Of a DNA stretch of 64,000 nucleotides, positions 6,975 through 61,236 are shown in pieces. Below the pieces are notes generated by a model that saw only the letters and a program-made list of their open reading frames with translations, did not search any database and was not told the DNA's origin. The DNA is from Eledone cirrhosa (lineage: Eukaryota). Location: assembly GCA_964016885.1 (NCBI GenBank), contig OZ024758.1, forward strand, positions 11,408,001 to 11,472,000. The letters are read 5' to 3'. Each line of letters starts with the position of its first letter. Position 1 is the stretch's first letter. The position numbers and the translations under genes were made by a program.

Positions 6975-7856
<882 letters not shown>

Positions 7857-20375: not shown

Positions 20376-21530
20376 GATGAAATCGAAAATGCAACTGGAG
20401 ACTTATTTATAAAAAATATATATATTTATTTGGTTCCAATATATATTTTTTTAAAAAATAAGACTCCAGTTGCATTTTCGATTTTATCTTTTTTTCTTTA
20501 TACAAATCCCTCCGAGGTTAACTTTGCCTTTCATTCTTACGGGCTCGATAAAATAAAGTACCAGTAATGCACTGGGTTAATTGCTGGCCTTGTGCCAAAA
20601 GTAGAAACAATTATTTTTCTTTTAACATTTATAATGGCTAAAGCTTATTTCGTTATCGTTATGAAACCTTTCCATCACTATCTCTGTGTCAATTTATCAT
20701 ATTGTGGGTATTACCTGCCCGATACTCAGTGTATAATATATACAAAGTGATTACCACATACTCAGTGTGTATTTAGACAGCCAAACTGGCTCTCCAACGC
20801 TGAATCTCTAAGAGGACATAGATATGCATGCGTTACACTAAAACAATTTACAAACATAATCGAAGACTACATCTTCATCAAATTTACAAATATATATATA
20901 TATATTTAAAAAGATGAAATCGAAAATGCAACTGGAGACTTATTTAAAAAAAATATATATATTTATTTGGTTCCAATATATATTTTTTTTAAAAATAAGA
21001 CTCCAGTTGCATTTTCGATTTTATCTTTTTTTCTTTATACAAATCCCGCCGAGGTTAACTTTGCCTTTCATTCTTACGGGGTCGATAAAATAAAGTACCA
21101 GTAATGCACTGGATTAATTGCTGGCCTTGTGCCAAAAGTAGAAACAATTATTTTTCTTTTAACATTTATAATGGCTAAAGCTTATTTCGTTATCGTCATG
21201 AAACCTTTCCATCACTATCTCTGTGTCAATTTATCATATTATGGGTATTACCTGCCCGATACTCTGTATAATATATACAAAGTGATTACCACATACTCAG
21301 TGTATAATATATACAAAGTGATTACCACATACTCAGTGTATAATATATACAAAGTGATTACGACATACTCAGTGTATAATATATACAAAGTGATTACCAC
21401 ATACTCAGTGTGTATTTAGACGGTAAAACTGGCTCTCCAACGCTGAATCTCTAAGAGGACATAGATATGCATGCGTTACACTAAAACAATTTACAAACAT
21501 AATCGAAGACTACATCTTCATCAAATTTAC
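20371..21530. repeat. Local tandem duplication (~540 bp; second unit expanded by a 36-bp repeat at 21265-21410)
   Basis: 20371-20890 matches 20908-21530. Confidence 0.9.
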
Positions 21531-31194: not shown

Positions 31195-31232
<38 letters not shown>

Positions 31233-31236
<4 letters not shown>

Positions 31237-31797
31237 AATAGAATGAAACGAAATTTCATTTCTCACTCTTAGTACGGCACTTACTCAAATGTATACATGC
31301 TACTGTACGTCTGTATACATATATGTATGTACGTATACATACATACTTCCATTTGAGTAAGTGCCGTACTAAGAGTGAGAAATGAAATTTCGTTTCATTC
31401 TATTCTATTTATCGTTTTCGGTGCGCCTGGCCGACTGAACTCACTCGATATGCAAATTAGGCTGCTCAGCCGTTAATTTTCATAAGGAAAGTATATACTT
31501 TCGAACGTTCAACCATCTGGCAGAAAGGTATACGGTGCTGACGATAGCTAACAAGCTTGAAACTAGTACATCGTTCCTGTGTCAGTGTTGAACAAAAAGG
31601 TGACGTGGTTGCCTGAACATTATACGGCGTAAATCAGGCTGTTCGTTTGTTTACAAACGAACAAAGCGAACATTATAATAAATGTTCGGTAAACTGATAC
31701 GTGCATATATATATGTGTGCCTGTATGTATATATATATATACATGCTACTGTACGTCTGTATACATATATGTATGTACGTATACATACATACTTACA
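31233..31797 (+). mobile_element. PLE-like insert with an inverted 5' segment, a direct terminal repeat and an HHR
   Basis: 31235-31291 is inverted relative to 31350-31406. 31292-31348 is repeated directly at 31738-31795. HHR at 31532. (TA)n on both sides. Confidence 0.7.
31532..31574 (+). ncRNA. Minimal type I hammerhead ribozyme
   Basis: ACGGTG-CTGACGA-t-AGCT-aaca-AGCT-t-GAAA-CTAG-TA-CATCGT. 6-bp stem I, palindromic CTAG loop III, GUA site. Confidence 0.8.
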
Positions 31798-34700
31798 TTA
31801 TATATAAATAGGCATATATATATATAAATATGCCTATATATATATATATATATTATATATATTATATATATATTATATATATATATATAAAAAGATGAAA
31901 TCGAAAATGCAACTGGAGTCTTATTTAAAAAAAATATATATATTTATTTGGTTCCAATATATATTTAAAAAAAAATAAGACTCCAGTTGCATTTTCGATT
32001 TTATCTTTTTTTCTTTATACAAATCCCGCCGAGGTTAACTTTGCCTTTCATCCTTACGGGGTCGATAAAATAAAGTACCAGTGATGCACTGGGATAATTG
32101 CTGGCCTTGTGCCAAAAGTAGAAACAATTATTACCCGCCTTTTGTTTTATTTTATTTAGTTTATGCCAGTAGGTGGAGAGATCAAATACACTTTCTTGTT
32201 TAAATGAGAAAGAGTAGAACACACGTCTTGATCTCTGCCTTACATAAAGTCTTAACACAACTTGATAATTGCCTTACATACATATAATATAAATGAAGTA
32301 TTTCCGTCGGAAAGGTACAGGAAAAAAGAGTGCTCTATGTAGGCTACAGAGCTTATTAGTTATGTAATAAACAACATAAGATAATTATTTCATTTACCAG
32401 TGGTTTCTTAAAGGCAGATGTTGTGTCTGTCTTCAGTCGTCAGAATGAATAAATAACATGGTGTTTTTATTATATATGGATTAGAAAACAAAATTTACGA
32501 AATATGAAAGTGAGGATGAAAAAAACGGGCGAAAAGGAAATAGGCGAAAAATATAAAAAATATATATATAAAAAAATAAATATCCAGAAAATAAACATAC
32601 ACACACTCAACTACGCGCATATACTTAATAGTACGTAGACTTGTTTATTACATTTAATATAATACAGTTTCCATTTAAGAAGTTAGAAGTATTTTATTTA
32701 GTTATATTGTCTCTAGTAACTTGACTGGTACTTATATTATCGATCGTAGAAGGATGAAAGCGAAAATGGATCCGGGGAATTAAATGAAATATTCCAGTGA
32801 CCTTTAATTATTCTAGTTCGTGGTATTAATGTTGCTAGAAGGAGGCGCAGGCAGACCTGCTAATAATTAAAGTAAGATCTGTTCAATTTGAACAGTGTAA
32901 CTTGACTAGTTGTAACATTTCCTTAACTAAAACACGAATACCGTTAATTGGTCCTGTATTATGTGAGGTTAATTAGAGAAGTTGAACAACCTTATGATGT
33001 CTAAGACTTCAATCTCTTTCAAGCAATATTTCCAGAATATATTTTTTGATATTCGACAAATATAAGTTCCCTGTACAGTTCTCTCCCCCTGCTTACTTCA
33101 ACATTACTTTCTCTTTCAATCTGGTTCTTTCTGCCTTCTAATCTTCCAATTTTCCCTCACCCCAGTGTTTTACCTTACTGACCCTCTCACGAATTCTTTC
33201 TGACAGTCTTGTCCCCCCCCCCTTCGATGTCACCCTCCACACCACTCCTTTGTTTTAATTCTTCCATCTTTCCTGCAACTAAAACAACACCATCTCTCTC
33301 TTGCAACACTATTTCTCTCTCTGTTTTAGTTTCTGTATTTCTGTGTCAGTCTCTCTCTCTCTCTCTCTCTCTTCTGTAAGAACCAGAAAAATTAGGTTCT
33401 TCACTTTTCACGGCACTTGAACTCACCGAACTCTTTCCCGACACTACCCCACCCCTCTCACCCGAGAGCTAAGTAAACTACTTTTCTCTGAGACAAAATC
33501 TGACATTTCCAGCAAATATGAAGTTGCTAATAACGAGAAAAATAGTGGAAAATTTCTTTAACTAACGATTTTTTTTTTCTATGTTTCCGAGGCATTTTAC
33601 AAAATTTCTCACACTGGAGAAATATCACAAATTTGTAGTGTAGAAATATATTCGATTTAATCTATTATATCTGGAATTTGTTTTATCGATCGCAGAAAAA
33701 ATTCAAATGAAACTTCGATTTGATTTAAACAGAATAAAAATACCTTAGGATAAAAGACTGGATGTATTTTCTGCCATTCCAATGCCAAACCTTTCTATAA
33801 ATAATGGCTATAAATCTTTGCTGTTTCAGGTTTTTGTGAACTAAGTCAACTCGAATTATTTTATGGATTTCGGAACGATGCAAAGAAAAGAAAAAAAAAA
33901 TCGATCCACGTAAATATCATGATTGATTTTCTCTGTAGCTCTATTTATTTTGTCATTCAACGACCTATTAAAGACTTGCAGAAATAATGCTAACTTTGAA
34001 TACACAGTATTATTTTAATCAATATGTTACTTAATGTACATTAGATTGTTCTTAAGAAAAGATACACAACATCTTTGATACAGACGAACCTTCTGTTCAT
34101 GTCCACGGTCTGGTGATGAAAGGATTGCTAGGACCGCAATGTTAACGAGGGTTAGATCCTTCCTCTAAATCGATAAAAGATAAATCGATCCCTATAATTG
34201 ATACTTTATTTGCTGACTCCAAAATTAAGAAATCTAGTGCTGGTTTCTACGAAACTTGAACCGAGAGCAGAGAGGGACGGAAGAAGTACCGCAAGGTATT
34301 ATATCCGATGTTCTAATGATTACCAATTCATCGTCTGATACAGTTAACAATAGGCGACATATCGATAGAGTCGTTAGAACGTCGGATCGACTGCTACGTA
34401 TTATTCCTCCCGGCGATTCGTCTTTTATATCTCTTTCTCATTACATCTCTCTCTCTCTCTCTCTCTCTCCCCCCCCCCCTCTCTCTCTTGAAAGAAATCG
34501 TCTGTGTTCAGACTCATCAGACTCAGAGAAAGAAGAGGTTTAAAATCTGATCTGTCAAGTTAAAAATGGTCGTGGTATTTATAAACCTGACAGAAATTCG
34601 TGAAATACGTAAGCTAATTCTAGGGAAAAAATTACATAAAGTTTATATTTAAATATTTTTGTGATTTAAATATTGTGCATATATTTCTATGTTGAATGTG

Positions 34701-52381: not shown

Positions 52382-52532
52382 AACGAGTAGGACCCCGACG
52401 GCTGAGCTCAAGCCGTCGAAACGGCTTGAGCTCAGCAGTCGGGGTCCTACTCGTTCCTATTACCCACTCTACTACCCTAAGTATTGAGTACTTTGGTGCG
52501 TTATGGTCCACCTGGTCCACATTTCCTTCGTT
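52379..52532. mobile_element. Copy of the 11981 palindromic family
   Basis: Hairpin at 52379-52459, then ..GTATTGAGTACTTTGGTGCGTTATGGTCCA.., with (TA)n flanks. Confidence 0.8.

Positions 52533-60732: not shown

Positions 60733-61236
<504 letters not shown>

Follow-up and report, generated by a model that had tools for sequence, protein, structure and literature searches.

A hammerhead-bearing, ORF-less repeat family of Eledone cirrhosa with paired insertion ends, probably a non-LTR retrozyme copied into (TA)n by a Penelope-type enzyme

A short repeat family of Eledone cirrhosa is, in all probability, an ORF-less, hammerhead-bearing non-LTR retrozyme. Its insertion into (TA)n is probably the work of a Penelope-type element (PLE), which would supply the reverse transcriptase-endonuclease and is most likely a Neptune-like one from this genome. 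The firmest part of this reading, in which we have high confidence, is the retrozyme class together with Penelope-type mobilisation. The family was studied from one copy in a window of 64 000 nucleotides (G000:C19:11408001-11472000), which belongs to a genome of 3.0 Gb that is rich in microsatellites. In the literature consulted, the inserting enzyme of animal retrozymes and the form of their template are proposed rather than shown. The present family offers thousands of young insertion scars and a counted rule for the pairing of insertion ends, which is common to an intact Neptune-like element with a 784-aa frame. Together with a 14-nt candidate recognition motif, these make the donor, the start sites and the choice between circle and multimer testable by the published in vitro PLE assay.

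RESULTS AND DISCUSSION

Organization of the element in the window

In the element (31233-31799), which lies within (TA)n, one unit of 446 bp is preceded by a partial unit of 58 bp and an inverted arm of 59 bp (Table 1). Numbering the unit u1-u446 from 31350 to 31795, the order is (TA)n, inverted u1-u59, u389-u446, the full unit, u1-u4 and a TA-rich run. An initial annotation, made from the window sequence, had described a direct repeat of ∼57 bp at 31292 and 31738 with a period of ∼446 bp, and this was confirmed: the repeat is exact over 57 bp (31292-31348 = 31738-31794, period 446) and extends to 65 nt at 97%. The inverted copy of the element start that it had reported is also present, 31236-31291 being the exact 56-bp reverse complement of 31350-31405. 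When compared with the majority letters of the family, the inverted copy measures 59 nt and reaches 31233, because the internal copy carries a minority T at unit position 57 (found in 4 of 78 copies). It is, however, the fixed tail end of the family and not a random 5' copy. The 14-nt terminal motif of the window copy contains one minority letter.

Table 1. Features of the element and its flanks (window coordinates; u, position in the unit)
Feature	Position	Strand	Remark
Left (TA)n run, likely target site	31195-31232	.	Family ends adjoin (TA)n
Inverted arm, u1-u59 (tail), terminus at fixed site A	31233-31291	-	56-bp exact inversion
Partial upstream unit u389-u446, 5'-truncated start of the main arm and source of the direct repeat	31292-31349	+	57-bp exact repeat
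Full non-coding 446-bp unit	31350-31795	+	u1-u386 match dozens of copies in the genome at 96-99% identity
Tail, internal copy (site B to site A), 14-nt motif at its end	31350-31411	+	
Predicted hairpin with ATGCAAAT octamer at 31450-31457	31449-31484	+	466-bp sister family has the hairpin too
Type I hammerhead motif (activity predicted)	31532-31574	+	
AATAAA within a hairpin loop	31677-31682	+	
Internal TA-rich microsatellite	31703-31745	+	Length differs among copies; draws nested insertions
Fixed site B end, u446/1-4, without tail	31796-31799	+	
Right TA-rich run, likely target site	31800-31889	.	

Both (TA)n flanks are seen as annotated, at 31195-31234 and from ∼31800. The element is indeed devoid of coding capacity: its longest ATG ORF is 39 aa, the longest stop-free stretch of the concatenated unit is 64 aa, and the RT + GIY-YIG ORF of an autonomous EN+ PLE is absent from it. 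The whole unit is strongly self-paired (fold z -6.74). The AATAAA that had been pointed out exists but does not mark an end; we rejected it as a poly(A) signal, since it sits in a hairpin loop, is missing from the L134 subfamily and lies away from the mapped ends. The octamer of the 31449-31484 hairpin, for which a Pol III promoter role might presumably be imagined, is part of a conserved hairpin.

Other repeats share this environment. A second small fold-back (31890-32020) occupies the same TA run, with 29-bp exact arms at 31898-31926 and 31973-32001; it is another TA-targeting repeat, present in at least seven examined loci and also at 20392-21009 of the window. Copies of a third TA-targeting repeat, also common, are found at 52486-52530, 38547 and 12292; its two fixed ends are separated by ∼80 nt. 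Hammerhead-like cores at 7129, 12662 and 26790 (minus strand) are probably the ends of other PLE families.

An abundant family of independent non-coding units

A relaxed pattern of the hammerhead core gave 27,328 matches in the genome and none for the reversed control, which indicates that the core is not a chance occurrence; two exact patterns gave 10,697 and 13,460 matches, again with none for the reversed controls. By similarity search, 2,663 candidates were obtained, and the 40 of them that were scored yielded 104 matches, the full-length ones being 96-99% identical. Mean pairwise identity among 78 distinct full-core copies is 96.5%. The search for further copies that the initial annotation had called for returned thousands. 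They retain the hammerhead, and more-than-unit, tandem and inverted insertions are all represented among them. The window copy is a young, ordinary member of this family. The unit was also found in a few contig records of three other organisms, at a depth of 2-11; these were left out of the analysis.

Besides dispersed single copies there are inversions and tandem arrays, whose units are 420-510 bp long. Between subfamilies, in which unit length ranges from 422 to 508 bp, similarity over the core is 77-99%. The sequence features of non-LTR retrozymes found here are a short non-coding unit, its repetition as dimers to multimers, and a type I hammerhead motif in each unit. Two or more intact cut sites are spanned by 20 of 117 family arms, the window copy having one motif. 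One array comprises ∼30 tandem units (C14:25.12-25.13 Mb). In this region (G000:C14:25115000-25134400; L031, L032), two subfamilies that are ∼93% and 97% like the window unit stand head to head, and the array continues past the left edge of the examined DNA; it is a possible source locus.

Two further hammerhead repeats were encountered. A sister repeat of 466 bp (L193-L212; L157:2500-2900), with copies 98-99% identical, resembles the window family in its octamer hairpin, its palindromic loop 3 and a terminal hairpin. A tandem repeat of 310 bp (L050:1499-4600, L121, L122, L146, L053) also has a 4-bp helix II closed by U.U, but its stem letters differ and its loop 3 reads CGCG. In L050 this repeat is apparently nested within a copy of the window family.

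One might ask whether the unit is merely the pLTR of an autonomous PLE, and the window copy its ordinary truncated end. An inverted arm with a one-sided tail is the standard form of PLE insertions (PMC3846280, PMC8557442), retrozymes are related to pLTRs (bioRxiv 10.64898/2026.07.22.740005), and with 27,000 copies a rare parent element might escape notice. Against this, what lies upstream of a unit is one more such unit, as many as ∼30 forming an array; the 5' ends of insertions fall throughout the unit; and in at least four subfamilies (420-510 bp) the unit evolves as a whole. In addition, the PLE ORFs found near copies are set off from them by TA runs, and no common ORF-bearing upstream neighbour was found among 38 solo arms. 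These observations point to a non-coding unit that is independent and does not form the end of some longer element, and we regard the pLTR explanation as improbable.

The hammerhead motif

The motif has a helix I of 6 bp (31532-37/31569-74), the core CUGACGA (31538-44), a helix II of 4 bp with U.U at its base (31546-49/31554-57), GAAA at 31559-62 and a helix III of 1 bp capped by the palindromic loop CUAG; cleavage is predicted after 31568. The initial annotation was right to place a hammerhead motif here, but the label 'minimal' does not hold. Judged by its sequence, the motif is canonical metazoan type I by the definition of PMC4209133, a build that is expected there to act as a dimer. Minimal motifs of PLEs have a helix II of 7-8 bp and keep G10.1-C11.1 (PMC4209133); neither this nor the helix I of 4-5 bp and the lack of helix III that go with the minimal type are found in the window motif, where U.U occupies the position of G10.1-C11.1. 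In axolotl HHR_Amex2, too, helix II has a U.U pair at its base (PMC7229834).

Among 16 subfamily representatives, helix I is 99% paired and the whole named structure 96%, the invariance of the core being by construction in this set, as loci were chosen by the core pattern. One pair of helix I changes on both sides (G-U in 8, A-U in 4, U-G in 4). The core regex is matched by 69 of the 78 full-core copies. Variation among the 78 copies is 0.9% over positions 171-240 and 2.2-3.0% over 1-130 and 241-350, with positions 131-170 equally low. In a sequencing run, the commonest of the variants listed inside the motif are at core position 7, in loop 2 and at the variable pair of helix I.

The isolated motif folds no better than shuffles (z -0.70), and the hammerhead monomer fold is weak, at -1.1 kcal/mol versus -8.7 for the MFE; a self-duplex of loop 3 gives -4.8 kcal/mol. 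No Rfam hammerhead matched the window at the gathering threshold, and the 83 matches obtained at E values up to 10 were hairpin or microsatellite noise, with no hammerhead among them.

Back-to-back insertions carry one end of each kind

Family insertions stop at two fixed sites with (TA)n beyond them, a setting in which a target-site duplication would be masked. At the unit junction lies site B, where the end has no tail; site A, ∼56 nt further on, gives an end with tail. Many family copies stop at unit positions 56-63 and run into (AT)n. Ends were mapped in 74 regions of contig C1, taken in position order by the core pattern. These contain 51 back-to-back arm pairs, of which 18 have at least one unclassified end and 33 have two classifiable outer ends. 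The latter comprise 32 A+B pairs, one B+B pair, which is probably microsatellite noise, and no A+A pair. With one duplicate locus dropped, 31 of 32 are A+B (binomial P 7.7e-9 against a coin toss). The window copy follows the same rule, its inverted left arm having end A and its right arm end B; the A arm halted at site B, and the B arm measures 508 nt. A retrozyme-like unit with Penelope insertion geometry, as first proposed from this single copy, is borne out by thousands of copies and by A+B ends in 32 of the 33 classifiable pairs.

The rule extends to two other repeats of this genome. In the Neptune-like element, two fixed ends lie 41 bp apart and 10 of 10 pairs detected (29 loci) obey the rule; in the 466-bp sister repeat, the two-end rule holds in all six pairs detected (20 loci). 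These data also bear on a purely DNA-level origin, either as a satellite or as a Helitron-type fold-back element of the HINE/DINE-like kind, with the hammerhead motif as a passenger. The hairpin near one end, the internal microsatellite and the tandem arrays would all suit it. Such an origin is nevertheless disfavoured and seems to us extremely improbable, given variable 5' truncation combined with two fixed 3' ends, an A+B rule common to an RT-encoding PLE, and the covariation in helix I.

In classic L1-type twin priming, the two arms of an inverted insertion derive from non-overlapping parts of one linear RNA. This suits the window copy, but the A arm passes site B in 30 of 32 pairs, so that the arms overlap on the unit, and we rejected twin priming as a general model. 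The overlaps at the arm junction measure 1-35 nt in 12 of 32 pairs. The hammerhead cut site was likewise rejected as an insertion end: 5' ends are scattered through the unit, and one of 81 falls at the cut site versus 2.55 expected. The scattered 5' ends, together with the arms that span two or more intact cut sites, imply a template longer than the cleaved monomer; these counts carry a bias, every locus having been chosen for the presence of one intact core.

The two arms of one insertion resemble each other, with a median quantile of 0.042, 21 of 27 at ≤0.1 and 8 of 27 closest or tied; such likeness could be expected from one RNA, from one source locus or from later gene conversion.

A proposed mechanism and the form of the template

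We propose that a PLE enzyme, perhaps as the dimer modelled in PMC11167929, would nick both strands of a TA run. Site A would serve for priming one nicked strand and site B for priming the other. The template would be an RNA of more than unit length, either a circle formed by re-ligation or a multimer left uncleaved. Both cDNAs would then be joined head to head at their truncated ends through microhomology. As for the hammerhead, it would cut multimers, probably as a dimer, and so give rise to monomers and circles; processing of multimers in this way has been reported in mussel, coral and axolotl (PMC7229834).

The 'one-and-a-bit turns' of the initial annotation, taken as turns of a circle, go too far, since a linear multimer would give the same sequence, and we consider the chances of a circular template to be even. 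A reading that keeps the class and the enzyme, and is thus compatible with our main claim, holds that tandem arrays in the genome are read through into a linear transcript, which serves as the template, and that the hammerhead is dispensable for insertion. We think this plausible, if short of an even chance. Long arrays do exist and could give multimers; hammerhead mutants still inserted, unprocessed RNA being the main substrate (PMC11167929); and eight of nine predicted retrozyme dimers were uncleaved in vitro (bioRxiv 10.64898/2026.07.22.740005). The homogeneity of arrays, too, did not favour a single circle overall, the divergence between array units being lower than that from the nearest outside unit in 7 of 21 comparisons and tied in 4 (P 0.91). 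On the other hand, some multi-unit insertions are near-uniform across both arms and distinct from others, as in one of seven units (0.003 within versus 0.023 outside). The two-sided change that maintains helix I, and the lower variability of positions 171-240, though shared by positions 131-170, also speak against the linear reading.

A more specific version of the circular template is offered tentatively, and we think it rather unlikely as a whole. An enzyme dimer on one RNA circle would prime the two nicked strands, each from its own side of the tail, and copy round the circle, recruitment of the Neptune-like enzyme relying on 14-nt mimicry without pLTR ancestry. If true, this would provide an in vivo rule for how PLEs complete both strands, and a named enzyme-RNA pair with which rolling-circle insertion could be tested.

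A Neptune-like element as candidate enzyme donor

The Neptune-like element has a 4,734-bp unit with a 784-aa RT + GIY-YIG ORF, and many intact, near-identical copies; we assigned the label from its DKG and CX4CxxC motifs with reference to PMC8557442. Its no-tail end shares 13 of 14 letters, a pyrimidine-rich stretch, with site A of the repeat family. At a threshold of at least 12 of 14, this 14-mer was detected in 13 of 16 Neptune-like flanks and 27 of 127 family flanks, and in none of the 4,520 other TA-run flanks of the examined DNA (4,663 flanks overall). Direct scoring of the motif was adopted after clustering of the ends had merged 1,012 of 2,106 flanks into one cluster. Among genome-wide matches to the pattern, the first 100 listed all read, by their matched letters, as Neptune-like or family ends. 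The position of the motif is opposite in the two, at site A in the repeat and at the no-tail site in the autonomous element. Longer similarity between the unit and the Neptune-like element was not found by blastn beyond nested copies, nor did a regex search detect a canonical hammerhead in a young Neptune-like element (L214:3363-8096). That same copy has a further open frame upstream of the 784-aa frame. A head-to-head pair of the Neptune-like 3' end motif at 60869-61208 constitutes a stub of this element family in the window itself.

The shared pairing rule (10 of 10) and the specific 14-nt motif suggest that the Neptune-like element is the likely enzyme donor, a sequence-based assignment that we favour slightly over its negation. 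Another TA-targeting PLE, be it Hydra-like, a Naiad or an unsampled Neptune family, is a credible alternative to which we give less than an even chance; it would leave the class assignment intact. Hydra-like PLE ORFs abound, a single EN query having given 60,656 candidates, and our comparison of ends covered two PLE families. Both Hydra and Naiad elements target (TA)n, and Octopus Naiads are listed (PMC8557442), few Hydra-clade PLEs being reported outside cnidarians in that source. By contrast, the Hydra-like family that we sampled in 30 loci matches the unit in nested copies only, and was rejected as a parent; the terminal motif, scored over 4,663 flanks, proved specific to the Neptune-like end; and in L105 an older Neptune-like end is joined directly, head to head, to a retrozyme arm. 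Several Hydra-clade-like PLE families were seen in the examined loci (L036:2146-7060, L047, L089, L132), as labelled by the motifs of PMC8557442.

The L105 join carries little weight as proof of the donor. Of 38 solo arms, four directly adjoin the end of another family (C1 13733918, 14402206, 14441908 and L105), head to head with the 3' ends of four different TA-targeting families, so that three similar joins involve families other than the Neptune-like one. Two of the four, as read here, violate the A+B rule, which makes a deletion between neighbouring insertions an equally likely origin.

Comparison with known systems

Hammerhead repeats had already been linked to PLEs (PMC4209133). As in the metazoan non-LTR retrozymes of PMC7229834, the window family consists of ORF-less tandem units of a few hundred bases, each with one type I hammerhead and a weak palindromic helix III, and exists in thousands of copies; PLEs were proposed in the same work as mobilisers. 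The units are longer here (420-510 bp) than in mussel retrozymes (350-390 bp). Fixed paired ends, a tail and a named donor are not described for retrozymes in the consulted part of PMC7229834.

A recent preprint (bioRxiv 10.64898/2026.07.22.740005) treats animal retrozymes as non-autonomous PLE derivatives that co-occur with PLEs and are proposed to use their enzyme. Monomers, dimers and multimers belong to one family there, as they do here. The link to PLEs rests on pLTR homology in Xenopus in the preprint and on insertion geometry in the present case, where no pLTR homology was found beyond the 14-nt end motif. No mollusc class is among the taxa listed in the portion of the preprint consulted. 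A publication on this family was not found in the literature searched, octopus hammerhead papers included, although supplements may list cephalopod families; in the text of a paper on O. vulgaris repeats (PMC13282606), the words ribozyme, retrozyme and hammerhead have 0 occurrences, and no co-occurrence of 'twin priming' and 'pLTR' was found among the papers listed.

MRC1-like non-autonomous elements of Chlamys (PMC8557442) resemble the window family in being non-coding head-to-tail multicopy insertions. They carry pLTRs and 3' similarity to an autonomous PLE, whereas only 14 nt are common here; Chlamys elements belong to green algae, and their PLE group is described as lacking canonical hammerheads.

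The closest parallel in insertion form is with EN+ PLEs, which, like the present family, show partial tandems, a head-to-head inverted arm, a tail at one end and AT-rich or (TA)n targets (PMC3846280, PMC8557442). Our family differs from them by the lack of an RT or GIY-YIG ORF, by a canonical rather than minimal hammerhead and by a tail of ∼56 nt, compared with 30-40 in EN+ PLE insertions. In vitro, reverse transcription by a PLE protein begins at two internal sites, one on either side of the tail (PMC11167929), to which sites A and B are the counterpart; no strand difference in start site is reported in that study, whereas we count one arm per site. The class, the PLE partnership, the one-sided tail and two-site initiation are thus already published; to these the present analysis adds a rule for the pairing of ends that rests on counts, the observation that an intact PLE obeys it, and one specific motif as a candidate.
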